A DNA stretch of 64,000 nucleotides, taken from Laetmonice hystrix (Eukaryota). Under the pieces are notes generated by a model. That model saw only the letters and a program-made list of their open reading frames with translations. It had not been told where the DNA came from and searched no databases. The DNA is taken from positions 994,001 through 1,058,000 of the forward strand of contig OZ249436.1 of the NCBI GenBank assembly GCA_965235115.1, given 5' to 3'. Position 1 is the first letter of the stretch. Each line of letters opens with the position of its first letter. Positions 1-39,747 of the stretch are shown here, in pieces. The translations under genes were made by a program, and so were the position numbers.

Positions 1-590
1 TACAACATCAGACACAAATTTTATACGGTGATGGACACTGGAAGTCTTCTACAACATCAGACACAAAATTATACGGTGATGTCATGAACCCTGGAAGTTT
101 TCTACAACATCAGACACAAAGTTATACGGTGATGGACACTGGAATTCTTCTACAACATCAGACACAGAATTATACCGTGATTTACACTGGAAGTCTTCTA
201 CAACATCAGACACAAAATTATACGGTGATGTCATGAACCCTGGAAGTTTTCTACAACATCAGACACAAAGTTATACGGTGATGGACACTGGAAGTCTTCT
301 ACAACATCAGACACAGAATTATACCGTGATTTACACTGGAAGTCTTCTACAACATCAGACACAGAATTATACCGTGATTTACACTGGAAGTCTTCTACAA
401 CATCAGACACAGAATTATACCGTGATTTACACTGGAAGTCTTCTACAACATCAGACACAGAATTATACGGTGATGGACACTGGAAGTCTTCTACAACATC
501 AGACACAGAATTATACGGTGATGGACACTGGAAGTCTTCTACAACATCGGACACAAAATTATACGGTGACACTGGAGGTCTTCTACAACA
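1..590. repeat. 48-bp minisatellite containing a splice acceptor and the start of the next exon (EDFQCPSPY)
   Basis: Minus unit ...tctgatgttgtag|AAGACTTCCAGTGTCCATCACCGTAT. Confidence 0.9.
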
Positions 591-608
591 TATATGTAAG
601 ATACTGAC

Positions 609-893
609 CGCAGTTCTCGAGGTGACCAGCGTCCCGGCATCCCAGGATGACTCCATAACGGTCACTGTCATATAAACACCTCCAGTCCTCCGGGTAACGC
701 TGTGTGTTCTTACATCGAACCGTCTCCGACCCTGGAGAAGGTGGTCGCCTGGAGGACGCCAGAGACACACACATACCTTTATCTTCGTCCTCCTTGTGAG
801 TTCCGGGACAGTCGACTATGACGTCACAGCGTCGGTCCAATGATATACACGTGCCATCATAACACTGGAAGGTGTGGTCCATGGAACACGTAT
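609..893 (-). CDS. Exon 24: LDLa repeat plus GRL101-type atypical LDLa
   Basis: [26 protein letters not shown]...[24 protein letters not shown]. Confidence 0.85.
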
Positions 894-3800
894 CTGAGAG
901 TAGGAATAAAGACGTTACAATTATGTAGCTTTTATTCTCTAACTGACACACTGACTGCAAAGTGAGTTGACCAGGCAATCCGATAGTGTCACATTATACA
1001 CCTTAAGATTTTCTTACTTTTCTCGCTGAAAGAATAAAAATCGGAATGAAAGAAATCAGCTTGAGGTTAGGTTATACTGAAACAACCCAACAGTTGAACG
1101 GAGTGAGACGTCAAATAATATACCGAAACAACCCAACAGTTGAACGGAGTGAGACGTCAAATAATATACCGAAACAACCCAACAGTTGAACGGAGTGAGA
1201 CATCAAATAATATACCGAAACAACCCAACAGTTGAACGGAGTGAGACGTCAAATAATATACCCAAACAACCCAACAGTTGAACGGAGTGAGACGTCAAAT
1301 AATATACCCAAACAACCCAACAGTTGAACGGAGTGAGACGTCAAATAATATACCCAAACAACCCAACAGTTGAACGGAGTAAGACGTCAAATAATATACC
1401 GAAACAACCCAACAGTTGAACGGAGTGGGACGTCAAATAATATACCGAAACAACCCAACAGTTGAACGGAGTGAGACGTCAAATAATATACCGAAACAAC
1501 CCAACAGTTGAACGGAGTGAGACGTCAAATAATATACCGAAACAACCCAACAGTTGAACGGAGTGAGACGTCAAATAATATACCGAAACAACCCAACAGT
1601 TGAACGGAGTGAGACGTCAAATAATATATTTCGTCAGAGAATACTATTTCCCAATTAAAAGATTATGGTAGGGGCCTAGTACATTTTGTCTGAAACCATG
1701 TGAACCTCCAAGCCACTGAAAGTATCCCCTGTGACTTTGGACCAGAATTCCAGTTCTGTGTTGAGGAGGTGTACTCACCACAGGCCACTTCGTCCGAGGA
1801 GTCTGCGCAGTGAGGCCAAAGGTCACAGCGGTCCTCGCCCCGTATACATACAGCATCCGCACACCGGAACTCGGCGTCTGTACAGTTCGGGAACGCTGCA
1901 AGCGTTCACATCCATACATTATCTACACATAGCGTCCGCACACCGGAACTCGGCGTCTGTAACGTTACAGTTCGTGAACGCTACAACCGTTCACATCCAT
2001 ACATTATCTACACATAGCGTCCACACACCGGAACTCGGCGTCTGTACAGTTTGTGAACGCTACAACCGTTCACATCCATACATTATCTACACACAGCGTC
2101 CACACACCGGAACTCGGCGTCTGTACAGTTCGCTACAACCGGTCACATCCATACATTATCTACACACAGCGTCCACACACCGGAACTTGGCGTCTGTACA
2201 GTTCGCTACAACCGGTCACATCCATACATTATCTACACACAACGTCCACACACCGGAACTCGGCGTCTGTACAGTTCGTGAACGCTACAACCGTTCACAT
2301 CCATACATTATCTACACATAGCGTCCACACACCGGAACTCGGCGTCTGTACAGTTCGTGAACGCTACAACCGTTCACATCCATACATTACACAGCGTCCA
2401 CACACCGGAACTCGGCGTCTGTACAGTTCGTGGACGCTACAACCGTTCACATCCATACATTATCTACACATAGCGTCCACACTGAACGCTACAACCGTTC
2501 ACATCCATACATTATCTACACACAGCGTCCACACACCGGAACTCGGCGTCTGTACAGTTCGGGAACGCTACAACCGTTCACATCCATACATACACAGCGT
2601 CCACACACCGGAACTCGGCGTCTGTACAGTTCGTGAACGCTACAACCGTTCACATCCATACATTATCTACACATAGCGTCCACACACCGGAACTCGGCGT
2701 CTGTACAGTTCGTGAACGCTACAACCGTTCACATCCATACATTATCTACACATAGCGTCCACACACCGGAACTCGGCGTCTGTACAGTTGGTGAACGCTA
2801 CAACCGTTCACATCCATACATTATCTACACATAGCGTCCACACACCGGAACTCGGCGTCTGTACAGTTCGTGAACGCTACAACCGTTCACATCCATACAT
2901 ACACAGCGTCCACACACCGGAACTCGGCGTCTGTACAGTTCGTGAACGCTACAACCGTTCACATCCATACATACACAGCGTCCACACACCGGAACTCGGC
3001 GTCTGTACAGTTCGTGAACGCTACAACCGTTCACATCCATACATTACACATAGCGTCCACACACCGGAACTCGGCGTCTGTACAGTTCGCTACAACCGGT
3101 CACATCCATACATACACAGCGTCCACACACTGCTAAAAGACTCATTTGTTCGTGTCAGAATATTGTAGCATACATACTACAGAAGCGCTCGTCCTCCCCG
3201 CCTGGGCAGTCTCGTATAGCGTCACACACGGAGGCAAGAGGCCGGCAGATTCCGTTTCCACAGTCAAAGTGAAACGCAGGACAGGGCGGACCTACCAATA
3301 CAATATCACCGTACCCTCAGGACAGGGCGGACCTACCAATACAATATCACCGTACCCTCAGGACGGGACGGACCTACCAATACAATATCATCTTACCCTC
3401 AGGACAGGACGGACCTACCAATACAATATCACCTTACCCTCAGGACAGGGCGGACCTACCAATACAATATCACCGTACCCTCAGGACAGGACGGACCTAC
3501 CAATACAATATCAAGACAATAGCGGCCTATTTGATTCGAGATGGAAAACTCTTCAAAGTAAACGGCCAAGAATAATAGAGGACCTAGCAGCAGGCGGAAG
3601 GCCTACATAAATTTAGAGCTTGTGTTGTTCGGAAGCTGTCTATGGTGATGTCTATTAGTTTATCAGAAGCTGTCTATAGTGATGTCTATTAGTTTATCAG
3701 AAGCTGTCTATAGTGATGTCTATTAGTTGATCAGAAGCTGTCTATAGTGATGTCCATTAGTTGATCGGAAGCTGTCTATAGTGATGTCTATTAGTTTATC

Positions 3801-6800
3801 AGAAGCTGTCTATAGTGATGTCTATTAGTTTATCAGAAGCTTCTATAGTGATGTCTATTAGTTGATCAGAAGCTGTCTATAGTGATGTCTATTAGTTTAT
3901 CAGAAGCTTCTATAGTGATGTCTATTAGTTTATCAGAAGCTGTCTATGATGTCTATTTGAGCACCAGCCAACTTCATCATCAGACGGGTCACGTGTATCC
4001 TACCACAGTTCTGTTCGTCGCTGGCGTCCAGGCAATCAGCGCGTCCGTCACAGACGTAACGTTTCAACAAACACTCGCCACTACCGCACGTCGTGAGCTC
4101 TCCACCGCACGCTGCGGGGGGTCCCAGCGTCACCAGCACGCCCTCTACCGGACCTGTCATACACCAAACATAGTCAGCTGGGGGCAAGCGTGACTGTACG
4201 AGAGGGTTGCTGACACCACTAATGTAAGAGCCATATGACTAGACTGATTGAAGATATTTGGTGAATTATACCACCTGCATCGATGACTTTCTTGCAGCAG
4301 AAATGATTGGCTATGCGCGAGTTGCAGGGCCCATCCACCCAGCTTGGTTTAAAGGGTAAACTGTCAAGGTCAAGCATGGAACAGTCCTCGATCGTGGCGC
4401 CATCTGGTCGGCCTTTTCGCCTAAAAGTGAAAACAAAACAAGATGATCTATGGATAGCTGCATTTATATAAACGTGACTGGGATAATAATACGATACTAA
4501 TACGATGATAATACGATAATAATACGATACTAATACGATGATAATACGATGATAATACGATGATAATACGATAATAATACGGTGATAATACGATGATAAT
4601 ACGGTGATACTACGATGATAATACAGTGATAATACGATGATAATACGATGATAATACGATGCTAATACGATGATAATACGATGATAATACGATGATAATA
4701 CGGTGATAATACGATGATAATACGGTGATAATACGATGATAATACGATGATAATACGATGATAATACGATGATAATACGATAATAATACGACATGACGGT
4801 TCTGTGGTCAGCTGTTATATGTAACATGATGCTAGCCGAGGTTTGGACTGTACTGACCAGTGTGTATACGTGACGGGAGTGTTATCTGGCCACACAAACT
4901 GACCCTCACTAATACGGTCAGAGGCACCTGCAGATCAAACATTACAAAGCGGGATTATTTATAGTAAAACACAGAAGTATTCAGTAAGGTGTTTATAGGC
5001 CTATAGTAAACACAGAAGTATTCAGTAAGGTGTTTATATAGGCCTATAGTAAACACAGAAGTATTCAGTAAAATGTTTATGCCTATAGTAAAACACAGAA
5101 GTATTCAGTAAGGTGTTTATATAGGCCTATAGTAAACACAGAAGTATTCAGTAAGGTGTTTATATAGGCCTATATATAGTAAACACAGAAGTATTCAGTA
5201 AGGTGTTTATATAGGCCTATAGTAAACACAGAAGTATTCAGTAAGGTGTTTATATAGGCCTAAAGTAAACACAGAAGTATTCAGTAAGGTGTTTATATAG
5301 GCCTAGAGTAGACACAGAAGTATTCAGTAAGGTGTTTATATAGGCCTATAGTAAACACAGAAGTATACAGTAAGGTGTTTATATAGGCCTATAGTAAACA
5401 CAGAAGTATTCAGTAAGGTGTTTATATAGGCCTATAGTAAAACACAGAAGTATTCAGTAAGATGTTTATATAGGCCTATAGTAAAACACAGAAGTATTCA
5501 GTAAGGTGTTTATATAGGCCTAGAGTAAACACAGAAGTATTCAGTAAAATGTTTATGCCTATAGTAAACACAGAAGTATTCAGTAAAGTGTTTATATAGG
5601 CCTATAGTAAACACAGAAGTATTCAGTATAATGTTTATGCCTATAGTAAAACACAGAAGTATTCAGTAAGGTGTTTATATAGGCCTAGAGTAAACACAGA
5701 AGTATTCAGTAAGGTGTTTATATAGGCATATAGTAAACACAGAAATATTCAGTAAGGTGTTTATATAGGCCTAGAGTAATTATACACAGAAGTATTCAGT
5801 AAGGTGTTTATATAGGCCTAGAGTAAACACAGAAGTATTCAGTAAGGTGTTTATATAGGCCTAGAGTAAACACAGAAGTATTCAGTAAGGTGTTTATATA
5901 GGCCTATAGTAAACACATAAGTATACAGTAAGGTGTTTATATAGGCCTATAGTAAACACAGAAGTATACAGTAAGGTGTTTATATAGGCCTATAGTAAAC
6001 ACAGAATATAGGCCTATAGTAAACACAGAATATAGGCCTATAGTAAACACAGAATATAGGCCTATAGTAAACACAGAATATAGGCCTATAGTAAACACAG
6101 AATATAGGCCTATAGTAAACACAGAATATAGGCCTATAGTAAACACAGAATATAGGCCTATAGTAAACACAGAAGTATTCAGTAAGGTGTTTATATAGGC
6201 CTATAGTAAAACACAGAAGTATTCAGTAAGATGTTTATATAGGCCTATAGTAAACACAGAAGTATTCAGTAAGGTGTTTATATAGGCCTATAGTAAAACA
6301 CAGAAGTATTCAGTAAGGTGTTTATATAGGCCTAGAGTAAACACAGAAGTATTCAGTAAGGGGTTTATATAGGCCTATATATAGTAAACACAGAAGTATT
6401 CAGGAAGGTGTTTATATAGGCCTATAGTAAACACAGAAGTATTCAGTAAGGTGTTTATATAGGCCTAAAGTAAACACAGAAGTATTCAGTAAGGTGTTTA
6501 TATAGGCCTATAGTAAACACAGAAGTATTCAGTAAGGTGTTTATATAGGCCTATAGTAAACACAGAAGTATTCAGTAAGGTGTTTATATAGGCCTATAGT
6601 AAAACACAGAAGTATTCAGTAAGGTGTTTATATAGGCCTATAGTAAACACAGAAGTATTCAGTAAGGTGTTTATATAGGCCTAGAGTAAACACAGAAGTA
6701 TTCAGTAAGGTGTTTATATAGGCCTATAGTAAACACAGAAGTATTCAGTAAGGTGTTTATATAGGCCTATAGTAAAACACAGAAGTATTCAGTAAGGTGT

Positions 6801-9800
6801 TTATATAGGCCTATAGTAAACACAGAAGTATTCAGTAAGGTGTTTATATAGGCCTATAGTAAACACAGAAGTATTCAGTAAGGTGTTTATATAGGCCTAT
6901 AGTAAACACAGAAGTATTCAGTAAGGTGTTTATATAGGCCTATAGTAAACACAGAAGTATTCAGTAAGGTGTTTATATAGGCCTATAGTAAACACAGAAG
7001 TATACAGTAAGGTGTTTATATAGGCCTATAGTAAACACAGAAGTATTCAGTAAGGTGTTTATATAGGCCTATAGTAAACACAGAAGTATTCAGTAAGGTG
7101 TTTATATAGGCCTAGAGTAAACACAGAAGTATTCAGTAAGGTGTTTATATAGGCCTATAGTAAACACAGAAGTATTCAGTAAGGTGTTTATATAGGCCTA
7201 TAGTAAACACAGAAGTATTCAGTATAATGTTTATGCCTATAGTAAAACACAGAAGTATTCAGTAAGGTGTTTATATAGGCCTAGAGTAAACACAGAAGTA
7301 TTCAGTAAGGTGTTTATATAGGCCTATAGTAAAACACAGAAGTATTCAGTAAAGTGTTTATATAGGCCTGTAGTACAAAGGTTTCCAAGGAAGTCCGGAC
7401 CCTCTATTACGATCTTTCAACATTAGACTTACCGGTCTTAAAGTCATTAGACTCTCCTATAATTAGATTATGTTGACCCTCACCCCACCCCACCCCACCG
7501 CCGCCTATATTTGAATCCGGCCCATCAACAGCCCTGCACCTCCCCAAGGCACTCACCGATGTAGAAGTCCCCTCCCCAAGGAACTCACCGATGTAAAAGT
7601 CCCCTCCCCAAGGCACTCACCGATATAGAAGTCCCCTCCCCAAGGCACTCACCGATGTAGAAGTCCCCTCCCCAAGGCACGCACAGATATAGAAGTCCCC
7701 TCCCCAAGGCACTCACCGATGTACAAGTCCCCTCCCCAAGGAACTCACCGATGTAAAAGTCCCCTCCCCAAGGCACTCACCGATGTAAAAGTCCCCTCCC
7801 CAAGGAACTCACCGATGTAAAAGTCCCCTCCCCAAGGCACTCACCGATGTAGAAGTCCCCTCCCCAAGGCACTCACCGATGTAGAAGTCCCCTCCCCAAG
7901 GCACTCACCGATATAGAAGTCCCCTCCCCAAGGCACTCACCGATGTAGAAGTCCCCTCCCCAAGGCACTCACCAATGTAGAAGTCCCCTCCCCAAGGAAC
8001 TCACCGATGTAAAAGTCCCCTCCCCAAGGCACTCACCGATGTAAAAGTCCCCTCCCCAAGGAACTCACCGATGTAAAAGTCCCCTCCCCAAGGCACTCAC
8101 CGATGTAGAAGTCCCCTCCCCAAGGCACTCACCGATGTAGAAGTCCCCTCCCCAGGCACTCACCGATGTAGAAGTCCCCTCCCCAAGGCACTCACCGATG
8201 TAGAAGTCCCCTCCCCAAGGCACTCACCAATGTAGAAGTCCCCTCCCCAAGGCACTCACCGATATAGAAGTCCCCTCCCCAAGGCACTCACCGATGTAGA
8301 AGTCCCCTCCCCGAGGCACTCACCGATGTAGAAGTCCCCTCCCCAAGGCACTCACCGATGTAGAAGTCCCCTCCCCAAGGCACTCACCGATATAGAAGTC
8401 CCCTCCCCAAGGCACTCACCGATGTAGAAGTCCCCTCCCCAAGGCACTCACCGATATAGAAGTCCCCTCCCAAGGCACTCACCGATATAGAAGTCCCCTC
8501 CCCAAGGCACTCACCGATGTAGAAGTACCCTCCCCAAGGCACTCACCGATATAGAAGTCCCCTCCCCAAGGCACTCACCGATGTAGAAGTCCCCTCCCCA
8601 AGGCACTCACCGATATAGAAGTCCCTTCCCCAAGGCACTCACCGATGTAGAAGTCCCCTCCCCAAGGCACTCACCGATGTAGAAGTCCCCTCCCCAAGGC
8701 ACTCACCGATGTAGAAGTCCCCTCCCCAAGGCACTCACCGATGTAGAAGTCCCCTCCCCAAGGCACTCACCGATGTAGAAGTCCCCTCCCCAAGGCACTC
8801 ACCGATGTAGAAGTCCCCTCCCCGAGGGACTCACCGATGTAGAAGTCCCCTCCCCAAGGCACTCACCGATGTAGAAGTCCCCTCCCCCAGGCACTCGCCG
8901 ATATAGACGTCCCCTCCCCAAGGCACTCACCGATGTAGAAGTCCCCTCCCCAAGGCACTCACCGATGTAGAAGTCCCCTCCCCAGGGCACTCACCGATAT
9001 AGAAGTCCCCTCTCCAAGGCACTCACCGATGTAGAAGTCGGCGCCGTCGAAGAGTTCGATGAGGAGGTAGTTGACGAAGATCATCTCCCGTTTGTTCTTC
9101 ACGCTCACCAGGTGGCCACCATAGTCCTCGCATATTGCCTCTGCTTCCCGCCAGGTGACGTCCTTGTAGTAGTCGATGAAGCCATAGCAGTGACTCGAGT
9201 AGTAAGCCCAGCCAGGTGGGCAGTCTAAGCAATTGTCGGCAATACGAAGTTAGTGTTTTGTTTCAGTATACGCCCAGCCAGGTGGGCAGTCTAAGCAAGG
9301 GGGAAATGTGAAGTTAGTGCATTGTTTCTGTATACGCCCAGCCAGGTGGGCAGTCTAAGCAAGGCGGCAATGTGAAGTTAGTGCATTGTTTCAGTATACG
9401 CCCAGCCAGGTGGGCAGTCTAAGCAAGGGGACAGTGTGAAGTTAGTGTATTGTTTCTGTATACGCCCAGCCAGGTGGGCAGTCTAAGCAAGGGGACAATG
9501 TGAAGTTAGTGTATTGTTTCTGTATACGCCCAGCAAGGTGGGCAGTCTAAGCAAGGGGACAATGTGAAATTAGTGTATTGTTTCTGTATACGCCCAGCCA
9601 GGTGGGCAGTCTAAGCAAGGCGGCACTGAGAAGTTATATGTATTGTTTCTGTATACGCCCAGCCAGGTGGGCAGTCTAAGCAAGGGGACAATGTGAAGTT
9701 AGTGCATTGTTTCAGTATACGCCCAGCCAGGTGGGCAGTCTAAGCAAGGGGACAATGTGAAGTTATATGTATTGTTTCTGTATACGCCCAGCCAGGTGGG

Positions 9801-12800
9801 CAGTCTAAGCAAGGCGGCACTGAGAAGTTATATGTATTGTTTCTGTATACGCCCAGCCAGGTGGGCAGTCTAAGCAAGGGGACAATGTGAAGTTAGTGTA
9901 TTGTTTCTGTATACGCCCAGCCAGGTGGGCAGTCTAAGCAAGGGGACAATGTGAAGTTAGTGTATTGTTTCTGTATACGCCCAGCCAGGTGGGCAGTCTA
10001 AGCAAGGGGACAATGTGAAGTTAGTGCATTGTTTCAGTATACGCCCAGCCAGGTGGGCAGTCTAAGCAAGGGGGCAATGTGAAGTTAGTGTATTGTTTCT
10101 GTATACGCCTAGCCAGGTGGGCAGTCTAAGCAAGGCGGCAATGTGAAGTTAGTGTATTGTTTCTGTATACGCCCAGCCAGGTGGGCAGTCTAAGCAAGGC
10201 GGCAATGTGAAGTTAGTGTATTGTTTCAGTATACGCCCAGCCAGGTGGGCAGTCTAAGCAAGGGGACAATGTGAAGTTAGCGTTTTGTTAAGTATTCAGT
10301 ATTAAACTTACTTTCAAAGGTGTTTAATATGCTTTAAAACTTTTAAATGGTTAATTCCCCACAATATAATGTCTTTTCTTTTAGCTGCAGACAGGTGTAT
10401 GCCTATCAAATTTAGCATTTGGTGTGGCTGCTTTATATTATAGTAGTCTCTATTTTCGGATAAAGAAAATAAGAAATGACAATAGGCCTACATCATTCAT
10501 GTTATATAACAATAATTATTGAAGGCCTAATTTACCTTGATGTCCATAATACCAGTCAATGTCACTCGGGAAGTAGTAATACAACGTGTCGTACTCGGCG
10601 CTGAACCCGGCCCCGCCCCCACTACCGTCTGTGTGGAAGTACACATGTAAGTGCTCCCAGTCTCCGTACAGCGCCGCTGGGGGGCGCTTCGCGTTACAGA
10701 ACTTCCCTCTTGGAATCAACCTGCTAGCCGTGCGGTCAAGGTCATTGACAATGACGTAATCGCCGTCACACGCGCCCTCTGGCGTGGATTGAATGTCGAA
10801 GGCGGTGAAACGAAACCTGACGTATGAATGGTAGACAAGTTTGATAAACCACACACAGCGAAGGTTGGGGGCATAACCAGCTGGAAATCCAGGGGTCGCC
10901 ACTAGTCCACACGGCCACTCGCAGTAAAAACGCTCGCTGTGACAGACGGAACTAACTCCGCAACCTGGGCAGTCTGAAATTATAATGGCAGTCGTCAAAA
11001 CAAACTCATTATCGGAATGGTTAGAGGGAGAAAATACTACGTGCCTGAAGAGTTGGTTGTGAACCAGTTATTCTGACCTGTTAGGTCATATTCCACCTCC
11101 AGTCGCAGCTCGTGACGTTCGATTGGCAGTCGTCTTTGACACGTGACCAACTCGAGCGCCATCTTACGACCGGGAGATATAAACATCTGTTCGGTCGAAA
11201 CGATCATGTCCACACCAATGGTTCCTCCTTCGTCCGCTAGGTAGCGCGCGTAAAGTCGGTCTTGACATCTCCCAGGGTCCATTACGAAGGTACCCGACTG
11301 AAAACATTTCCATTCAGCAGTGTTTTGATAGGAGGCTCAGGGGGCATCCCCCTAGATATAATAATTAGTTTTTAGGGTATCTGGGGCCTGTTCATGTGAT
11401 CATGTCCAATTAAAAGTGTAGGCCTATATCTAGGGTCCTTAGCCACTGCTAAAACGTGAAAGCTTTACTTACTTCTCCGTAAAGCCGAGAATATGTAGAA
11501 AGACAGAATAACAATAGGTGTACTGATAGATTATATGCCACTCTTCTGCATTACTTCATGTGGCCTTGTCGTTGCTTGCCTTGGTAGGCCTACGGCCCTC
11601 CTAATTCACAACACTTTCCTCCATTAGGGCCTACACTTGTCATATCATCTGAACTTACAGAGAGTCAACGCTCTGAAAATCAAATGTAACCATGTATTGA
11701 CCAAGATGGAACCTGGAGACTCACTCGAAAAATACGTTCGTCCTGAGCAAGATTGAGTTGTCGCACGTGTAGTCTGACGTGTTGGCCGCTAGGTGACTCC
11801 ACCTGCCAGGTACAGGAGGCCATACGGCCGAACAGACGGAGGTAGTCACTGGTGTAGATGATAGGTCCTGGGGTCGTGAAAGTCGAGCCGCAGCTAGTCT
11901 CTGCAGTCAGTTTCAGATCAAAACATTTGACAAGTAGATGTGATATTTTTTTACTTCGGATAATATTATGCTGAAATGATGAAATGATAAAGTTCTGGTA
12001 CCTATCTCTGCCTGCGCCTCGCATGCAAACGTCAGTGTGAGCAACCCGCCGTCTGATGTGTGGTTGTTAGGTCGTGGAGGAGTGGACGGGAAGGTACACA
12101 CTGACCGACCGTGGCAGGCCACCGGGAGCAGGTCGGCGGTGAGTCGGGATACCAAGACCTCACCCGGCCAGGAGTCCGCGGGCCGTGGTGGGGAATCCCC
12201 GGGTCCAGGTACCGACCTCGCGGCGGGCCGTGGTGGGGAATCCCCGGGTCCAGGTGAACCCGGCCGGGAGTCCGCGGGCCGTGGTGGGGAATCCCCGGGT
12301 CTAGGTGAACCCGGCCGGGAGTCCGCGGGCCGTGGTGGGGAATCCCCGGGTCCAGGTACCGACCTCGCGGCGGGCCGTGGTGGGGAATCCCCGGGTCCAG
12401 GTGAACCCGGCCGGGAGTCCGCGGGCCGTGGTGGGGAATCCCCAGGCCCAGGTACCGACCTCACGTCAATGAGACTGACGGACTCCCCAGGTTCACAGGA
12501 CAATCTCACCGAGTCTCCGTCCTCTGTCACACGTGGAGGCTCTGTGCATGCAAACAATGGCGAGATGATCGTAAACGTTACAGATCTTACATGGGTCGGG
12601 AACAGGCAAGCATATCAGATGTATTGCCGTCTTCGGCCTGTCTGTTAGGGCTTAGGTTCAAAAGAGATCCGTTGCTCAAGTGCGATTACTGAAATTGACA
12701 CTCTCCTTTACAATTCCAGTTGGGAGCCGGAGGGGGGGGGGGGGGGGGTCGGAAATCTTAAGAAAAATTCTTTGGACCTGATCCTGTGCCGCCTGTGAAA

Positions 12801-15800
12801 CTCTCTGCCTGGAGGGTGATAAGCTTGGCGGGGAACGGAAATTACCACTCTTTCGAAAAGGTAACCTTGAAGCCAAGCCTGCTTTGCGCCGTCTGTGAAA
12901 CTCTCTGCCCGGAGAGTGACGTAGCTGCCATGAGAATGACGTACCTGCCCGGAGAGTGACGTACCTGCCATGAGAATGACGTACCTGCCCTGAGAATGAC
13001 GTACCTACCCTGAGAATGACGTACCTGCCCTGAGAATGACGTAACTGCCCTGAGAATGACGTACCTACCCTGAGAATGACGTACCTGCCCTGGGAATGAC
13101 GTAACTGCCCTGAGAATGACGTACCTGCCCGGAGAATGACGTAGCTGCCCTGAGAATGACTTACCTGCCCGGAGAATGACGTACCTGCCCTGAGAATGAC
13201 GTACCTGCCCAGAGAATGACGTACCTGCCCTGACTCCCAGTATTCTCAGCTCACAGACGTGGATAGGAATGTCTGACGTGAACTTCAGAGTGACAACTCT
13301 CCCCGTGACGTCACGGGCACATCGTAAGCCCACCAGGTGGCGTTCGGCCGTCACTGTGACGCTCCCACACAGTGTCTCGGGGTGAGTGGCGTTTGGAACG
13401 ATGGGTCCCACCCAGATCTCAACGCCAATCTCAACCTCAGCTTTAGGGTAAGGAAAATAGTTAACACGTTTCAGTCTTTGAAATAGTCGGTATTTTCCAT
13501 ATTCGCCATTGGTTTTGCATATAAATGTAGCCTTTATTTGTAGGCCCTGTACATGTATTGGTCTTGGTTAATGAGGCCTACAAGTCTAGTTAGAGGCCCT
13601 TGGCTTCATTCAAGTAGTCCAAAGTAAACCTGGATCGAACAGAATGCGAGCAAGACGTTATTAATCTACCAGCAGAGATTCTGATTATGATGTAAGTAAG
13701 ATCCTCACCACACAGTGGAATGTCGCAGTAAGCCCAGGTCCCAAACCCAGTCAGGCACCAAGGTGCCAATCGTCCGTTCGGGTTACGGCAGTAGTTGGAT
13801 TCAGCCGCCAGGTGGCCGCTGGTGACCTGACCCGGAAGCAGACCGAGTTGGGCAGGGTCCTGCGCAGCCCAGGGCAGACATTCTGTCCCGTTGTGGGTGA
13901 CGTTCACCAGACCACCATACTGGACCTCAGCTCCTGGCATCGTGCAGGCCCAGCTAACATCACCTTTAAGGAAGACATGAGGCAAAGCCTTGGACGTAAT
14001 TGAAAGTGAAAGTGACGTCACAATATTGTGGATGTTCCTGGGAATAGGCCCACGCCGCTTGGTGGCAATTGGCCATCCCTTACGACCTGCCCACCAAGCC
14101 TACTGCAATGTTTAATTTCCAACTTTGTACAGATGATTTCTGTCCCAGAATGATAAGTTTAAATCTAGCCTGAAAATATCTTTATCTCTGCTTGTATCCT
14201 CACATGCCGCGATTCTCCTATGTTTACAACTGTCCGACATTCCCCGGAAGTGGCTCTGTTTCACCCATTATCGTCCCACAGGACGACGTGACTTTCACTC
14301 CTTATTCAAAAGTATGCTGAACACCGTTTTGCGACACTAACGCGCAGACTTACGGTTGCCTTCAGTGGGTCGTGCGATGGTCACGTGACCAATGACGTAA
14401 TCGTCGTCCAGAACGGCTGTCACCAAGGGCTGGTTCTCGTTTACTGAGCCCCAACAAGTGTCAAAATTCTGGTCGATCATTAACTTCCCCGAACTGTTAG
14501 ATCTCCCTGAACTCATCGCAAAGTCAGCCTTTGGTGCCAGGTTCACTGCAAATAGATATTAGGGTCACACTTATTATTCTCATTTCTATTCAACCATATA
14601 ATTCCACCTTTTTCCCCTTTTGCTTGCTATTAGATGACACGGTTTTCATGTAGGCCTAGACTAATATAGAACTGTTGGAATTGTTGCTCATATTTTAAGG
14701 GATCGACCACGGCCCAGGAATGGGTCCATGCAGGTTATACGCTTAGTAGTCTACTGGCGGAATTTATTAGAAAAAATTATTTACTATGTGCAGTTAGAAC
14801 CTTCTAAGTTCCTTACATATATTCGACGCAACTTCGGTGAGAAATGTGTTCTACCAACGCGAGGTGGGCCAGGACAAAAGGGTGTCAAACCAGGTCGACC
14901 GATGTGTCACATCATACCGAGGTGGGCCGAAACAAGAGGGTGTAAACCCGAGTGTTGAGGTCCACCGAGGTTGATGAGGTGCACAAGCGAGTGGCAGTAT
15001 TGGTAGACAGCCGAGGTGAGCCGAGGCTGTCTACCAATACCGACACGAGCGATCCCAATAGAGGTTGCCACCACTTCTGTGGTGGTGGTCGTCGTTGGGA
15101 CTCGCCCGTGTCCACTCAACCATGGCCCTTGATAATCGCACTCATAATTCGCTCGTATAACTGCCACATGGTGACTAAATACCACTCATCAACATTTCGT
15201 TGGGTATTGTCTGCCAGAGAATCGACGAATTCTCATACTCAGGCCTTTTTGGAGAGTCAGTATAGTTTTAGTAAATATCATAGTGATAGGGATAGCTTAG
15301 TACTGGCGGAACATTCGGGAACCTTCGGGAAAGTCCGCCACCTTCCGCTGGGTTCGGATTTTCATCTGCCATCTGTCGAGGTAGAGCCGAGTGCTGGGGA
15401 AAGACAGGGAGAGAGCTCAGTGGGCCGGTCAGAGTGTCGTGTCATAAAACGTGACGCAACGCTCGGCCGTTTTGCTTCTAACGTTGCGTCACGTTTTTTG
15501 ACGTTACGCATACGAACGACGTAGATTTTCGACGTACCACGGACGTCTGAACAGCCGAGCAGCCGCAGCCTCAGACAGGCCAGGTGGGTCCACGTTGTCA
15601 CATGAAGCACCAAGTAGCGGGCCAGGATGGGCCGCCCAAACACATGCTTCTTGGGCGTGTGCGGGTCGTCTCCCCCTCTGAACGTCTAGGACAGTTGATA
15701 ACGTTCATTTTGAGTAACTTGTGACAGTAAAACTCCCTGCCCAGTCCGTGTACATTATCATTGTGACAGTAAAACTCCCTGCCCAGTCCGTATACATTAT

Positions 15801-18800
15801 CATTGTGACAGTAAAACTCCCTGCCCAGTCCGTATACATTATCATTGTGACAGTAAAACTCCCTGCCCAGTCCGTATACATTATCATTGTGACAGTAAAA
15901 CTCCCTGCCCAGTCCGTATACATTATCATTGTGACAGTAAAACTCCCTGCCCAGTCCGTGTACATTATCATTGTGACAGTAAAACTCCCTGCCCAGTCCG
16001 TACACATTATCATTGTGACAGTAAAACTCCCTGCCCAGTCCGTATACATTATCATTGTGACAGTAAAACTCCCTGCCCAGTCCGTGTACATTATCATTGT
16101 GACAGTAAAACTCCCTGCCCAGTCCGTGTCCAGTAAAACTCCCTGCCCAGTCCGTGTACAGTAAAACTCCCTGCCCAGTCCGTATACATTATCATTGTGA
16201 CAGTAAAACTCCCTGCCCAGTCCGTGTACATTATCATTGTGACAGTAAAACTCCCTGCCCAGTCCGTACACATTATCATTGTGACAGTAAAACTCCCTGC
16301 CCAGTCCGTATACATTATCATTGTGACAGTAAAACTCCCTGCCCAGTCCGTATACATTATCATTGTGACAGTAAAACTCCCTGCCCAGTCCGTACACATT
16401 ATCATTTCGACAGTAAAACTCCCTGCCCAGTCCGTACACATTATCATTGTGACAGTAAAACTCCCTGCCTAGTCCGTATACATTATCATTGTGACAGTAA
16501 AACTCCCTACCCAGTCCGTATACATTATCATTGTGACAGTAAAACTCCCTGCCCAGTCCGTGTACATTATCATTGTGACAGTAAAACTCCCTGCCCAGTC
16601 CGTACACATTATCATTGTGACAGTAAAACTCCCTTCCCAGTCCGTGTACATTATCATTGTGACAGTAAAACTCCCTGCCCAGTCCGTGTCCAGTCAAACT
16701 CCCTGCCCAGTCCGTGTACAGTAAAACTCCCTGCCCAGTCCGTATACATTATCATTGTGACAGTAAAACTCCCTGCCCAGTCCGTGTACATTATCATTGT
16801 GACAGTAAAACTCCCTGCCCAGTCCGTACACATTATCATTGTGACAGTAAAACTCCCTGCCCAGTCCGTATACATTATCATTGTGACAGTAAAACTCCCT
16901 GCCCAGTCCGTATACATTATCATTGTGACAGTAAAACTCCCTGCCCAGTCCGTATACATTATCATTGTGACAGTAAAACTCCCTACCCAGTCCGTATACA
17001 TTATCATTGTGACAGTAAAACTCCCTGCCCAGTCCGTGTACATTATCATTGTGACAGTCAAACTCCCTGCCCAGTCCGTATACATTATCATTGTGACAGT
17101 AAAACTCCCTGGCCAGTCCGTATACATTATCATTGTGACAGTAAAACTCCCTGCCAAGTCCGTGTATATTAGATATACGTTACATAGTCCTGAATTCTAG
17201 CAACGTCAAGCCTTACTAATGGTGGGTGTAGCCTATACATTATCTCTCCCTTATCTTGTGAGTGTCACAGATCTGTGTATTTGAGGGAATCATTCCTTTT
17301 TGATACATAAACACACACTAAAATACATCATATGGCCATTAGTAGATACTAGAATGAACAGTTTAGATCATAATGAACTAAATGTATGCGTAGGTTAACA
17401 TAAATGTGAAATATAATTTCTCTGTCCTAGTGCGGTTTCTCCTAACCATCGCGCGTTTGGTCAACCAAGTGGCTAACGTTGTTACCTTGGGTTGACCTAC
17501 TTCGTCCTGATAGGTCAGTAACTGGTCCGGACGTAGGCCGAACCGGATGTAGAATGACGTCACCATGTCGATAGCGTCCACAGTATGACCGCCCTGTGTG
17601 ACGAGCCCTGTGACCGTCCTCGGCATGAGAAAGTCGATCTACAAGAACACAAAACTCATCAACATGAATAAAATTAGTTCATCATTTTCTCCGGACTGAT
17701 GTGAATAATCAGATTTTCTCAGTCGGCTTGGCGTAATCTACCTTGATGAAAGGAGTCTTGTCCTGCTCGTGCGCACACCAACTTTTAGTCGAGAACAAAG
17801 CTATGTCGGTTAGGCTAGAGTCGGCCGCGTTTGATGACGTCATCACTTGCTCAGTCATGTCGACTTCTGCATCGGTAAATGGGATGCCACACGGAACATC
17901 TGTTTAATATAAATATGGAAGAATATATGGATCAATATAAATATGGGATGCCAAACGGAACATCTGTTTAATATAAATATGGATGAATATATGGATCAAT
18001 ATAAAAATGGGATGCCAAACGGAACATCTGTTTAATATAAATATGGAAGAATATATGGATCAATATAAATATGGGATGCCACACGGAACATCTGTTCAAT
18101 ATAAATATGGAAGAATATATGGATCAATATAAAAATGGATTAACAGGGATAATTATTGCACGAGTGTCGCAGAAAAAGGCAATATGCTTCAGAAAATGAG
18201 GTTGTTAGAAACATTCCTTACAATTTATATCGGTTAAATAATAATAATACAAAAATGAAAAAAAAATAAGGGGCCCAGAGGGCTTGGGCCCCCTTATTTT
18301 TTTCCAGGATCCCCCCACTGAATAAATATCTGATCCACCAGGGCGACAATCCACTTTTTTTTTTATTCTAAATTCTATATGACATTTGAAAGAAGCTTTT
18401 CAGGACACCAGGCTAAATTACATATTATTGACCTGATTAAATCCAACCTGTATATTGACCTTTGACCTGATTAAATCCAACCTGTATACTAACCTTTGAC
18501 CTGATTAAATCCAACCTATATACTGACCTTTGACCTGATTAAATCCAACCTGTATACTGACCTTTGACCTGATTAAATCCAACCTGTATACTGACCTTTG
18601 ACCTGATTAAATCCAACCTGTATACTGACCTTTGACCTGATTAAATCCAACCTGTATACTGACCTTTGACCTGATTAAATCCAACCTGTATACTGACCTT
18701 TGCCCTGTATACTGACCTTTTCCCTGTATACTGACCTTTGCCCTGTATACTGACCTTTGACCTGTATACTGACCTTTGACGTAGACTTTCACCTCACATA

Positions 18801-21800
18801 TTCTCAGACAAGGCCGTGGATGTGAACCGTATACATTCTGGACGATAGTGACGTACTGCCCTGTGATTGGCTGCTGGCACTGTAAGTAGGACGACATCTG
18901 TGACGTTGTGTAGTTAAATATGCAAATGAGTGCGCTGTCATAGAGAAAGTCCTCCCTCTGTTGGCCCACGTAGACATTAGCCTCCACCAGGGGGCACTCC
19001 AGTTCATCTGAAGCACCTGTCCAAGATAAGGTACAGTTCAACCCGGTCACACAGGGGCGGTTTAAGACTTACCAGCGAGTTTTTTTTCTGGGATTTTTAA
19101 CGGCAAATATGAAAGAGCTGGAATGAAATTAATTCAAACCAAATCACAGTTAATTTACCAAGTAATTGGGAGAAATAATTATTGTAAAACTGAATTCCTG
19201 GTACTTCTATACAACGCACACGAACTGTGGCCGCCTTTTTACCTTGTTGAATCTTTGCGCCGATATCAATATAGATGGCGTACACAGCTTCCGGTAATCT
19301 GAGATCGATCTGCCACCAGGGGACGTTCGTTAAGTGCTGGAGCGAGCACGTCGCTGTGAAAACATACAAGGCATTACACATAGCCTCAGTTTTTAAATAC
19401 TATTTTTGGTAACCTATGTTTCACCTCTTTGTATTTTTTTTATACACATTACTGTGGCCTGTACGTGTAGAGGTTCTAGACAAAATCATTTAGGCCTCGA
19501 TCTATGCATGCGTTTTAAGACATGTGGGCCCAGTTCCTGATCACACATCCTATGAGAACACAGCTGTGAAATTATCCCTGGTGGTGGAACAATTACAAAC
19601 ACTAGCCAACACGAGTGAACGCAAACACGATGAATGCCGCCATTTTGGTATATCGCCAATCGTTGAACGCTGTGTTGTTGTGGTGTAGAGCACACCTTCG
19701 GTAATAGTCCGCAATGAATGAATTCATTTGATCAATGAATTCATTTTACATAATACCCGCCAAGTCTACAGAAAGGTAGGGGAGCTTCGAACCATATCGG
19801 AGAACCACAATGTAGATATATCTTTTTGTGAAACGCCACGTGTGACTTGAAATTCGTGAGATATTTCCTTTTTAAAAGCATAACGTTTCTGATTGTCTGG
19901 GCTGCATGCTGTAACCGTTAATCAAAAACGTTAAGTTTAAATTTCGTCAAGATCTTTAGTTTTCATAAGCTGGATCCAAATGGATCTGGGAGTCATTCTT
20001 TCATTTCAAAATTTCAGCAGAAAGCGAAAGGCGGACGTTTTACCTGGGTCGCCATCCACGGCGCTGAGAGCCTGGTGGACGTAAGGGGGCGCTGTGAGTT
20101 GTCGTGCCGGGTAGTCTAAACCAATGTCCCTGACACCACGGTCTGCACAGCAATATTCAGGGTCACATAACAGGTGCAGAATTCATTGGGTTCCCCCGAC
20201 ATTATACAGACCTATAACTTTTACGTATTAGCCCGAGGTTATAGGCGTCACCAAATTTTAATTTATCACGTTGACCAAAATCGGATCAGTGGCGGATCCA
20301 GGGGGTCATGACCCTCCCTCGCCCTTTTGGCGGCAATTTTTCTCTTTTCCCCATAGAGCTTTCTGGATTAATCGTTTTGGGCGCCCCTCCCGCCCTGTTG
20401 CCAGATTCCGTCCATGGACTCCCCATCCTAGATCCGCCACCTGGGCCTACTGATATGCATGTAGACCCTTCAGTAGTGCGCATTACGACGTAATGTTTGA
20501 CTATGTAGGCCTGCCTAAATACGCGTCCTATTTGAGCATTCTGGTTGACATGGTAATGTTCTGTGATTTAGTAGTTTTACCTTAGGCCTACCTAAGCATT
20601 GTTCTGGTTGACATGGTAATGTTCTGTGATTTAGTAGTTTTACCTTAGGCCTACCTAAGCATTGTTCTGGTTGACATGGTAATGTTCTGTGATTTAGTAG
20701 TTTTACCGTAGGCCTACCTAAGCATTGTTCTGGTTGACATGGTAATGTTCTGTGATTTGGTAGTTTTACCTTAGGCCTACCTAAGCATTGTTCTGGTTGA
20801 CATGGTAATGTTCTGTGATTTGGTAGTTTTACCTTAGGCCTACCTAAGCATTGTTCTGGTTGAGATGGTAATGTTCTGTGATTTGGTAGTTTTACCTTAC
20901 CTAAGCATTGTTCTGGTTGAGATGGTAATGTTCTGTGATTTGGTAGTTTTACCTTACCTAAGCATTGTTGTAATACACAACGTGACAACTCCAGGCACCT
21001 CGAAGACGCCAGGCACTGCGCGGTAATGCCTGTATTGTCGCTGACGTTTCCGGAACTGATTGGGTCACATGACCCTCCCGTTTCTAGGTCGGACGTTTCG
21101 GAACTCTCATCCGATTGGTTGCCTTGACACTGACCTTTAACTGGCAGTAAATTAATTTATACATTTTACAGAGTGGGAAGAAAACAAAGAGGCTTTCTAC
21201 TATACGCATGGTTAGTATACGATTATTGCACTGAACTATGAACAGGATGCGCAGCCTCACCTTGATATTGACAAAATGTCAAGGTGACGAACTTGGTTCC
21301 ACTGCGCGTGATTCGTGGAGTTTCTCCGGATGTTTCATAGGTGGCGCCACCGACAAGGCGTAATCGGTGGAGCTGAGGTGACACGCTTAGATTCTCCACC
21401 ATTTGACAGGTCGGACCGGACTGTAGAGGACAATGAATCTTAGAAATTGTAATGGAATATTTTTATTCAGTGACTAATGTTTTAAAAATAGGCTCACTAT
21501 TAGATCTGAGATGTTTTTTTTTGGTATTTGGGTCGTTTAAATAACGCAATCTCAAAAAGGAAGAGAAAAAAGTTCCGCCCCTAACTGCCCCTCTAATTAA
21601 CGTGCATCATCACCATAAGGTGAATTTAAATTTTATGAGTCTATACACCTTGCGTTCAGGCATATCCAAAACACCAAGATTTAAGTGGCCCAGTTTATAC
21701 CTGTCTTACGTTCAGGCTATAGATACACCAAGATTTAAGTGGCCCAGTTTATACCTGTCTTACGTTCAGGCCTATAGATACACCAAGATTTAAGTGGCCC

Positions 21801-24800
21801 AGTTTATACCTGTCTTACGTTCAGCCCTATAGATACACCAAGATTTAAGCGGCCCAGTTTATACCTGTCTTACGTTCAGGCCTATAGATACACCAAGATT
21901 TAAGTGGCCCAGTTTATACCTGTCTTACGTTCAGGCCTATAGATACACCAAGATTTAAGGGCCCAGTTTATACCTGTCTTGCGTTCAGGCCTATAGATAC
22001 ACCAATATTTAAGCGGCCCAGTTTATACCTGTCTTACGTTCAGGCCTATAGATACACCAAGATTTAAGCGGCCCAGTTTATACCTGTCTTACGTTTAGGC
22101 CTATAGATACACCAAGATTTAAGCGGCCCAGTTTATACCTGTCTTACGTTCAGGCCTATAGATACACCAAGATTTAAGTGGCCCAGTTTTACCTGTCTTA
22201 CGTTCAGGCCTATAGATACACCAAGATTTAAGCGGCCCAGTTTATACCTGTCTTACGTTCAGGCCTATAGATACACCAAGATTTAAGCGGCCCAGTTTAT
22301 ACCTGTCTTACGTTCAGGCCTATAGATACACCAAGATTTAAGCGGCCCAGTTTATACCTGTCTTAGGTTCAGGCCTATAGATACACCAAGATTTAAGCGG
22401 CCCAGTTTATACCTGTCTTACGTTCAGGCCTATAGATACACCAAGATTTAAGTGGCCCAGTTTATACCTGTCTTACGTTCAGGCCTATAGATACACCAAG
22501 ATTTAAGCGGCCCAGTTTATACCTGTCTTACGTTCAGACCTATAGATACACCAAGATTTAAGCGGCCCAGTTTATACCTGTCTTACGTTCAGACCTATAG
22601 ATACACCAAGATTTAAGTGGCCCAGTTTATACCTGTCTTACGTTCAGGCCTATAGATACACCAAGATTTAAGCGGCCCAGTTTATACCTGTCTTACGTTC
22701 AGGCCTATAGATACACCAAGATTTAAGCGGCCCAGTTTATACCTGTCTTGCGTTCAGGCCTATAGATACACCAAGATTTAAGCGGCCCAGTTTATACCTG
22801 TCTTACGTTTAGGCCTATAGATACACCAAGATTTAAGCGGCCCAGTTTATACCTGTCTTACGTTCAGGCCTATAGATACACCAAGATTTAAGTGGCCCAG
22901 TTTTACCTGTCTTACGTTCAGGCCTATAGATACACCAAGATTTAAGCGGCCCAGTTTATACCTGTCTTACGTTCAGGCCTATAGATACACCAAGATTTAA
23001 GCGGCCCAGTTTATACCTGTCTTACGTTCAGGCCTATAGATACACCAAGATTTAAGCGGCCCAGTTTATACCTGTCTTAGGTTCAGGCCTATAGATACAC
23101 CAAGATTTAAGCGGCCCAGTTTATACCTGTCTTACGTTCAGGCCTATAGCAGGGCCGTAGCCTGCGGGGGGGGGGGGGGGCAGGGGGGCAGCTGCCCCCC
23201 CCCTGGGATTTCCAGTTTTTTGTGTTTTTTTAACCCACACCCCGGGCCGCGAAATTTTTTTTCCCACATTAGATACACCAAGATTTAAGTGGCCCAGTTT
23301 ATACCTGTAAGAGCATGAAGGGGTGTTTGGCCGGAAGTACGATCGGTTCCGACGCGGGACCGTCAGAGCGACAACAGAAACTAATGACGACTCCGGTAGG
23401 TGGCAGCACCCATCCTGGAATGGGGTCGACATGGCGAATAACTTGAACAGAGGGACCTGACAGTTTCCATGTCCCAGGTTGAAATCCTGCAATGAAACTT
23501 GTGAATTAAACAGGGGGGAGCCTATAGGAAAGGGGGGGACCCTGCCCCCTCAGAATGTACGTAAAATACTGTTACATTTTTCCTGAAGGAATCCCGCGAC
23601 AGGATCAGATCTGTCATAGTACGGCCTAGACCAATAAATATCCATCCATTATACGTGTCAAAGTTGACGTTAGTGATCTGAGGCGTACCTAGGCCTAGAT
23701 CTCTAGACCTGAGCTTCTTCCATACCTTCTGGGCACTGATTTGAAACGCGATAGAGGCAGTAGGTTCCTGCAGGCCAGTCTTCCTCTGAGATATCGGGGT
23801 CGAACCCTTGGAATCTCACACAAACATTTGAGGAGAACATCGTTTGCCCCAGCGGTCCCAGCAAGGTTGAGGGCGAGGCACGGGTAACTTTGGTCGTATG
23901 GTCCATTGTGACAATGAGGCTGCCCGGAAACCACGTGACGTTGTCGTCACGTGGGCAGTCGTACACAGGGCGGGGGAGACCGAAATTACCCCCTGGCCAG
24001 GCGGTACCTGAGAGTCCATAATAGCAGGGAGGATGTTATTTGGTACTCCAAGGGAAACAATTCATAGGGCGTAGATATAATAGGGGGCCTATCTGGAAAA
24101 GTTGACTTTGCCTTCTAAGTAACTGATGTTAGGCCTACAAATGCCAATTCATACAAAGAAACAGGGGTTAATCGTGATTATCCCAAATTGAGGAGATCAC
24201 TGGGCGTACTTATAATTTCCTACAATGTATCATTGCCTACTAAATAACTACAGTAGCGCCTACAAATTGTAAAATTTGGTCTTGGTATGACGCTAAAGAT
24301 AATGTAACGCCTTTCTCCATCTACTCTTGGTGAATGAGGGACCAGGAGCCATTCTCCATCTACTCTTGGTGAATGAGGGACCAGGAGCCATTCTCCATCT
24401 ACTCTTGGTGAATGAGGGACCATGAGTCATTCTCCATCTACTCATGGTGAATGAGGGACCAGGAGCCATTCTCCATCTACTCTTGGTGAATGAGGGACCA
24501 GGAGCCATTCTCCATCTACTCTTGGTGAATGAGGGACCAGGAGCCATTCTCCATCTACTCTTGGTGAATGAGGGACCAGGAGTCATTCTCCATCTACTCA
24601 TGGTGAATGAGGGACCAGGAGCCATTCTCCATCTACTCTTGGTGAATGAGGGACCAGGAGTCATTCTCCATCTACTCTTGGTGAATGAGGGACCAGGAGC
24701 CATTCTCCATCTACTCTTGGTCAATGAGGGACCAGGAGCCATTCTCCATCTACTCTTGGTGAATGAGGGACCAGGAGCCATTCTCAATCTACTCTTGGTG

Positions 24801-33800: not shown

Positions 33801-35076
33801 CCACTGATGGCCTGGGTGTGGGAGGGTGGGGTTGGGATCAGTGATGTATGCTAGGGTAGGCCCCACTGATGGCCTGGGTGTGGGAGGGTGGGGTTGGGAT
33901 CAGTGATGTATGCTAGGGTAGGCCCCACTGATGGCCTGGGTGTGGGAGGGTGGGGTTGGGATCAGTGATGTATGCTAGGGTAGGCCCACTGATGGCCTGG
34001 GTGTGGGAGGGTGGGGTTGGGATCACTGATGTATGCTAGGGTAGGCCCCACTGATGGCCTGGGTGTGGGAGGGTGGGGTTGGGATCAGTGATGTATGCTA
34101 GGGTAGGCCCCACTGATGGCCTGGGTGTGGGAGGGTGGGGTTGGGATCAGTGATGTATGCTAGGGTAGGCCCACTGATGGCCTGGGTGTGGGAGGGTGGG
34201 GTTGGGATCAGTGATGTATGCTAGGGTAGGCCCCACTGATGGCCTGGGTGTGGGAGGGTGGGGTTGGGATCAGTGATGTATGCTAGGGTAGGCCCCACTG
34301 ATGGCCTGGGTGTGGGAGGGTGGGGTTGGGATCAGGAAAGTGATGTATGCTAGGGTAGGCCCCACTGATGGCCTGGGTGTGGGAGGGTGGGGTTGGGATC
34401 AGTGAGGTATGCTAGGGTAGGCCCCACTGATGGCCTGGGTGTGGGAGGGTGGGGTTGGGATCAGTGATGTATGCTAGGGTAGGCCCCACTGATGGCCTGG
34501 GTGTGGGAGGGTGGGGTTGGGATCAGGAAAGTGATGTATGCTAGGGTAGGCCCCACTGATGGCCTGGGTGTGGGAGGGTGGGGTTGGGATCAGTGAGGTA
34601 TGCTAGGGTAGGCCCCACTGATGGCCTGGGTGTGGGAGGGTGGGGTTGGGATCAGTGATGTATGCTAGGGTAGGCCCCACTGATGGCCTGGGTGTGGGAG
34701 GGTGGGGTTGGGATCAGGAAAGTGATGTATGCTAGGGTAGGCCCCACTGATGGCCTGGGTGTGGGAGGGTGGGGTTGGGATCAGTGATGTATGCTAGGGT
34801 AGGCCCCACTGATGGCCTGGGTGTGGGAGGGTGGGGTTGGGATCAGTGATGTATGCTAGGGTAGGCTCCACTGATGGCCTGGGTGTGGGAGGGTGGGGTT
34901 GGGATCAGTGATGTATGCTAGGGTAGGCCCCACTGATGGCCTGGGTGTGGGAGGGTGGGGTTGAGATCAGGAAAGTGATGTATACTAGGGTAGGCCCCAC
35001 TGATGGCCTGGGTGTGGGAGGGTGGGGTTGGGATCAGGAAAGTGATGTATGCTAGGGTAGGCCCCACTAATGGCCT
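30862..35076. repeat. 62-bp G-rich minisatellite (~67 copies) seeded by the 3' end of the 4-TM gene
   Basis: gtgatgtatgctagggtaggccccactgatggcctgggtgtgggagggtggggttgggatca. Confidence 0.95.
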
Positions 35077-39638: not shown

Positions 39639-39747
39639 GAATGGACTACAAAAAATGATTAATTGGGGGAACTAAAAGTGAATTGAGAAGAGTCACGAAA
39701 GACAGGAGTCAAAACATAAAGCTATAGACCACTATAACAATCATCGA

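Follow-up and report, generated by a model that had tools for sequence, protein, structure and literature searches.

In a 64,000-nt stretch of the Laetmonice hystrix genome (contig OZ249436.1; hereafter the window), ten of the 16 intron arrays of a single receptor gene overlap a splice junction and copy it, five at donors and five at acceptors. Judged by sequence-level features, these arrays are mirages of the type described in amphioxus. They are probably explained by local tandem duplication combined with purifying selection and the erosion of intron middles, an account under which a mechanism targeted at splicing would be unneeded.

The window sits about 1.0 Mb into a contig of 73.8 Mb (genome of 627 Mb in 35 contigs), and the gene that hosts the arrays was modelled from coordinates:

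1..26549, minus strand: host gene, coding exons 1–25 (coordinate-built model), running on to the left of the window

The gene has at least 27 exons, 25 coding ones in the window (from 26549 down to 609) and exons 26 and 27 to its left. In the predicted model all junctions are GT–AG with chained phases, exons 2–27 translate without a stop in those phases, and a single continuous frame is obtained with the terminal junctions alone in use. Pfam matches were found in 14 of the 26 exons from 2 to 27. The N-terminal part comprises a signal-peptide-like start followed by ApeC, F5/8-like, kringle, two CUB and C-type lectin domains, and the C-terminal part comprises LDLa repeats and then LRR and 7TM segments; LDLa (PF00057, in six exons), LRR (PF13855) and rhodopsin-type 7TM (PF00001) are all present as Pfam matches. 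We take this architecture to be that of a GRL101-like receptor. The exon numbering of the first-pass annotation agrees with the coordinate-built model, and the exon that it had placed beyond the left edge was found 7.8 kb to the left of the window as exon 26, an exon of the LDLa type in which an 8.4-kb array ends. Further left, a 640-aa open frame on the plus strand, about 13.6–15.5 kb from the window, is by its look presumably a reverse-transcriptase retroelement. At the other end, positions 39641–64000 hold nested segmental duplications (90–98% identity, pieces of up to 3.7 kb, main spacing about 8.5–9 kb); short ORFs recur in them, and they include an insert with inverted repeats near 42150–43960.

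The ten junction arrays are arranged head-to-tail, with TRF periods of 19–79 bp and 4–175 copies. On the predicted model, the terminal unit of each is the authentic GT or AG junction with 4–51 nt of exon:

1..591, minus strand: right end of the exon 26 acceptor array; 48 bp, about 175 units, 8.4 kb in total; 16 exon nt
1845..3130, minus strand: exon 24 acceptor array; compound, about 77–79 bp (period set by hand); junction 1895; 51 exon nt
3277..3513, minus strand: exon 23 acceptor array; 41 bp x 5.8; junction 3291; 15 exon nt
7539..9039, minus strand: exon 19 donor array; 32 bp x 47; junction 9027; 13 exon nt
9203..10289, minus strand: exon 19 acceptor array; 64 bp x 17; junction 9224; 22 exon nt
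12905..13233, minus strand: exon 14 donor array; 20 bp x 16; junction 13225; 9 exon nt, equal to the far-end microhomology
17879..18139, minus strand: exon 9 acceptor array; 64 bp x 4; junction 17899; 21 exon nt
18428..18780, minus strand: exon 8 donor array; compound, 19/34 bp; junction 18774; 7 exon nt
20527..20969, minus strand: exon 5 donor array; 63 bp x 7; junction 20958; 12 exon nt
21638..23308, minus strand: exon 3 donor array; 55 bp x 27 plus a detached terminal unit; junction 23305; 4 exon nt
23150..23269, no strand assigned: dispersed high-copy repeat of about 120 bp, between the exon 3 terminal unit and its array

Array interiors mostly show unit identities of 89–97%, and the terminal units of the exon 19 and exon 26 arrays have visibly diverged from the interior units. 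The exon 3 donor is the weakest junction case, with 4 exon nt and the real unit severed from its array; the dispersed repeat between the two has at least 41 matches among those listed (40 scored of 701 candidates). The remaining arrays of the gene stay clear of the junctions, six in introns and one, the only wholly exonic array of the host gene, in frame within exon 15, where it adds units rich in Pro, Gly, Ser and Asp:

1073..1628, no strand assigned: intron-only array; 46 bp; 150 nt from the junction
3629..3957, no strand assigned: intron-only array; 34 bp; 46 nt from the junction
4482..4791, no strand assigned: intron-only array; 11 bp; 61 nt from the junction
4960..7375, no strand assigned: intron-only array; 43 bp; 32 nt from the exon 20 acceptor
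15719..17171, no strand assigned: intron-only array; 42 bp; 33 nt from the exon 11 acceptor
24309..26374, no strand assigned: intron-only array; 39 bp; 99 nt from the exon 1 donor
12162..12465, minus strand: in-frame coding repeat of 51/45 bp in exon 15

Nine arrays copying real junctions had been reported in the first-pass annotation, and all nine were recovered on the frame-consistent, Pfam-supported predicted model; the tenth (exon 24 acceptor), the six intron-only arrays and the exonic repeat had been left out. The remark that all of them expand into the intron also holds, but by geometry alone and not as independent evidence, since tandem copying of any junction keeps a single terminal junction intact, and every other copy then counts as intron. 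Outside the window, a 27-bp array (C1 981000–981827) begins in the receptor's TM7 exon; it may be a further donor mirage, or the frame may stop within the array, and it was left uncounted.

For comparison with chance, arrays were collapsed to their ancestral footprint under three definitions, overlap was counted when at least 3 exon nt were included, and the footprints touching introns were placed under two nulls, gene-wide and per-intron. An initial run with raw TRF ends gave 6/15 junction arrays in the host gene against 4.5 expected (P 0.27) and 15/30 in dynein genes against 8.9; raw ends missed diverged terminal units and compound arrays, and extended ends, which raise the observed junction counts, were therefore used instead. 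With these, 10 of 16 host-gene arrays overlap a junction against 3.7–5.1 (gene-wide) or 4.9–5.8 (per-intron), P 0.0007–0.016. Because unique intron DNA is short, chance alone yields four to six junction arrays of 16. The host gene was chosen for showing the pattern, so its P values are optimistic, and for this reason an independent dynein control set was built. This set comprises 174 complete introns from 15 dynein genes, located by aligning the DNA, with splicing allowed, to a profile built from 12 public dyneins; an intron was kept if both flanking exons aligned well, no residue was skipped and the splice scores were plausible. One donor was moved by hand. Two genes, on C13 and C18, account for 69 of the 72 control arrays.

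Under the gene-wide null, 31 of the 72 dynein arrays overlap a junction against 14.0–18.1 expected (P 2e-6 to 4e-4; 1.7–2.2-fold), and so do 24 of 61 in the part of the DNA that was fetched blind (against 12.2–15.6, P 2e-4 to 9e-3). The strictest setting gives 27/50 against 19.1 (P 0.012), and 27/72 arrays still overlap when 6 exon nt are required. With at least 3 exon nt, the excess is present in each array-rich gene, C13 (20/39 against 9.2–12.0) and C18 (10/30 against 4.1–5.3). Under the per-intron null the dynein excess is 1.2–1.3-fold (31/72 against 23.1–26.5, P 0.011–0.11), and pooling all genes gives 40/88 against 28.0–32.3 (P 0.0008–0.026). In the blind part the per-intron excess is 1.03–1.21-fold (22–24 of 61 against 18.5–22.4) and not significant (24/61 against 19.9–22.4, P 0.10–0.35). 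Introns keeping at least 150 nt show a junction excess of 1.3–1.9-fold. Depending on the null chosen, chance would suffice for about half to four-fifths of all junction arrays. The first-pass annotation had asked whether overlap equals chance, and TRF with these nulls on the host and dynein genes gives a divided answer, an excess gene-wide and near-chance overlap per intron in the blind part.

The two nulls differ because arrays are concentrated in introns that retain hardly any unique DNA. Collapsed lengths below 90 nt were found in 12 of 67 array-bearing introns, in contrast to one of 133 array-free introns (minimum 89; Fisher P 9e-6), while the median collapsed length is not lower overall (236 nt in array-bearing against 201 nt in array-free introns). 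Introns with less than 100 nt left hold 17 arrays against 3.5 expected by length. After collapsing, 59 of 8411 nt remain in host intron 25 and 73 of 1282 nt in intron 23, one dynein intron consists of a donor array abutting an acceptor array, and far-end units are shortened in several arrays. These collapsed lengths suggest that unique intron DNA may have been deleted once arrays supplied length, an estimate drawn from the introns of this genome, in which compound arrays may be over-collapsed. In a toy deletion model, junction arrays would survive 1.2–1.6-fold better, about the size of the per-intron residual. Beyond chance, most of the remaining junction excess tracks the loss of unique intron DNA.

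Array density is strongly regional. Arrays make up 76% of the intron bases of the host gene and 48–81% of those of the C13 and C18 dynein genes, against 3% (972 of 30,187 bp) in the other 13 dynein genes pooled. The array-rich dynein genes lie at 1.1 Mb on C13 and at 27.7–27.8 of 28.0 Mb on C18, which places all three array-rich genes 0.2–1.2 Mb from a contig end, with end distances available for a minority of the array-poor loci. Within the C13 dynein gene, a macrosatellite with a 407-bp unit extends over about 17 kb; minisatellites of 65 and 49 bp and an exon start recur on either side of it, which suggests local duplication, and an intron of this gene holds about 1 kb of a 6-bp telomere-type repeat. 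In the C18 dynein gene, a 32-nt core recurs in two arrays about 1 kb apart at different exons, one of 66 bp at a donor and one of 79 bp at an acceptor, which suggests templated copying between nearby sites.

The proposed route would start from genes near contig ends, which are seen here to carry very many private arrays of 10–140 bp. With unique intron DNA of about 200–240 nt, a random intron-touching duplication of 40–60 bp would cross a junction in 20–35% of cases. Out-of-frame duplications within exons would be purged, and those spanning a junction would be tolerated because one complete junction stays beside the exon. Deletions, as the collapsed lengths suggest, would then take unique intron DNA and free-standing arrays; arrays anchored at an exon edge would be harder to remove, so that junction arrays would become over-represented and introns would be left with little unique DNA. 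By analogy with the human F7 gene and with amphioxus, the exon-adjacent copy (first donor, last acceptor) would be the one spliced, and the rare splice errors would mostly shift the frame and be cleared by NMD. A small birth bias toward junctions may add to duplication and erosion. Of the two mechanisms offered in the first-pass annotation, hyperactive local duplication filtered by selection fits best, given the added loss of unique intron DNA; the other, a mechanism biased to exon edges, agrees with the gene-wide excess but gains little from the blind DNA, where the per-intron excess is 1.0–1.2-fold and not significant.

This last alternative, in which birth or early expansion is mechanistically biased to exon edges and selection then strips exon-rich units, has some probability, if a rather low one. 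Candidate causes would be nucleosome or GC steps that provoke breaks or slippage, R-loops linked to the spliceosome, or microhomology that exon ends share with intronic motifs of the CAG type. It is favored by the gene-wide excess of 1.5–2.2-fold in the control genes, blind-fetched DNA included, and by the make-up of the units. Junction units contain less than half exon in 27–35 of 40 cases (P 0.04 to 1e-6), where uniform birth predicts otherwise, and units with a short exon part form a peak (28 against 9.1 gene-wide and 28 against 13.9 per-intron). Decoys rich in exon sequence may be selected against, or birth at the junction may be driven by microhomology; in 15 of 40 junction arrays, by a noisy estimate, the overlap at the far end reaches the length of the exon part. 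In addition to the near-chance overlap per intron in blind DNA, two-copy duplications argue against such a bias, with no junction excess (3/10 against 3.1 expected), and so does the lack of donor/acceptor asymmetry among the 40 automatically called junction arrays (18 donors, 22 acceptors). Edge anchoring is also present at a coding end without a splice site: a neighboring gene, with a long ORF of 289 aa on the minus strand (30862–35854 of the window; membrane-protein-like, with a PPPPSY motif near its end), is followed by a 62-bp x 68 array whose terminal unit is the C-terminal codons of that ORF, and the frame stops in the next unit. Two further candidates were rejected. A shared mobile seed is at odds with the finding of just three matching pairs among 89 units, each pair inside one gene, and the GC content of junction units (0.47, against 0.445 in interior units and 0.416 in unique intron DNA) is about what their exon share predicts.

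Pure chance, that is, dense arrays, short introns and purging within exons with no bias of survival or birth, is quite improbable as a full explanation. It suits the blind dynein subset under the per-intron null but breaks down under the gene-wide null in the C13 gene and the C18 gene alike, and it leaves unaccounted for the collapse of array-bearing introns below the array-free floor. Duplication with selection and erosion, the preferred reading, takes in both observations.

The statement of the first-pass annotation that the spliceosome faces dozens of decoy sites was right in sequence terms. The ten host arrays hold 307 intact GT or AG decoys. Exon 26 accounts for 172 of them, most lying beyond the window's edge, and the remaining nine arrays for 135; measured against 184 real sites, 286 of the 307 score above the 10th percentile. 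Among 35 arrays, 15 have unequal scores for real and decoy sites: the real site outscores its decoys in just 10, ties with them in 20 and falls below them in 5, and the idea that decoys are systematically weakened was rejected. At the exon 26 acceptor, 172 upstream decoys have a median of 5.6 bits against 4.4 for the real site; at the exon 19 acceptor, the real site scores -1.9 bits against a median of 3.4 for 16 decoys, and the exon 19 donor array contains 45 intact GT decoys. Acceptor arrays would need the last copy to win, which would point to exon definition. In a 55-bp acceptor array of the C13 dynein gene, the units read as acceptor plus donor, like recursive-splice points, and the spliced aligner used decoy units of this array as zero-length exons; junction arrays mislead gene prediction.

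That such arrays are functional, as banks of splice sites for isoforms or NMD-set expression or as raw material for new introns, is very improbable. The number of intact decoys and the 25 of 35 arrays with decoys at least as strong as the real site speak for it, and intron gain from mirages has been proposed in the amphioxus work (PMC3087553). However, use of 271 of the 277 decoys tested (exon 3 excluded; exon 5 just 1 of 6) would cause a frameshift or stop, no in-frame preference is seen (period divisible by 3 in 12/40 junction and 16/48 interior arrays), unrelated dynein genes show the same pattern, and RT-PCR in amphioxus suggested that mirages leave splicing undisturbed (PMC3087553). An assembly artefact has a negligible probability: the copy numbers are those of the assembly, but the units are told apart by substitutions and by patterns of higher order. 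In three public runs of one sample, each of the three arrays in 17200–21600 interrupts the contigs (which therefore give no array lengths), and summed depth is raised in most bins over these arrays, clearly in X1 and X2 and patchily in X3.

Structures of this kind are already known. In amphioxus (PMC3087553, PMC3902484), mirage minisatellites in Adh3, the globins BflGb6 and BflGb9, troponin C and PGBD5 are tandem copies of intron–exon boundaries, found at donors as well as acceptors; AG or GT is retained in many copies, the terminal units escape homogenization, and the mechanism is called unclear. The arrays described here are similar in that both 5' and 3' boundaries are copied, AG/GT is mostly kept and the terminal units are diverged. 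They differ in their host, probably a lophotrochozoan, in numbering ten in one gene with up to about 175 units, in clustering near contig ends and in having been measured against a null. A DNAH3 dynein fragment of this genome is 81–82% identical to gastropod, nemertean and annelid proteins, against 77% for Branchiostoma. In titles and the beginnings of abstracts, a range that mostly leaves out subscription papers, neither a null test of junction overlap nor a protostome mirage was found. In the 37-bp VNTR of human F7 intron 7 (PMC1557585), the first unit spans the exon–intron donor, and the identical pseudo-donors downstream, although functional, go unused because the site furthest upstream is preferred. 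The F7 VNTR is one donor-side locus with 5–9 sites, whereas acceptor arrays occur here as well, and the exon-adjacent (last) acceptor would have to beat up to 172 upstream copies.

Tandem duplication has also been linked to intron gain, in the Rogers model of tandem genomic duplication (cited in PMC3087553) and in a case reported from potato (PMC4974935). As in these cases, copying across splice or proto-splice sites makes extra junctions; unlike them, the host gene model keeps one frame through the terminal junctions, with no new intron seen. Human splicing-associated tandem repeats, such as the ABCA7 VNTR and those of the spl-TR catalogue (PMC5954066, PMC10078293), are likewise arrays near splice sites, and such arrays are reported to be able to affect splicing.

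What is new in L. hystrix is the measured null and the likely cause, and the acceptor arrays offer a ready test of 3' splice-site choice. A further reading, to which only tentative credence is given, is that introns near chromosome ends have been rebuilt from their own junctions, through an exon-edge bias of about 1.3–2-fold together with deletion of the unique middle. If this were true, some introns would be little other than copies of donors and acceptors, the spliceosome would pick the last of up to about 170 near-identical and sometimes stronger acceptors, and the genome would provide a genome-scale natural experiment on 3' splice-site choice and mirage formation.
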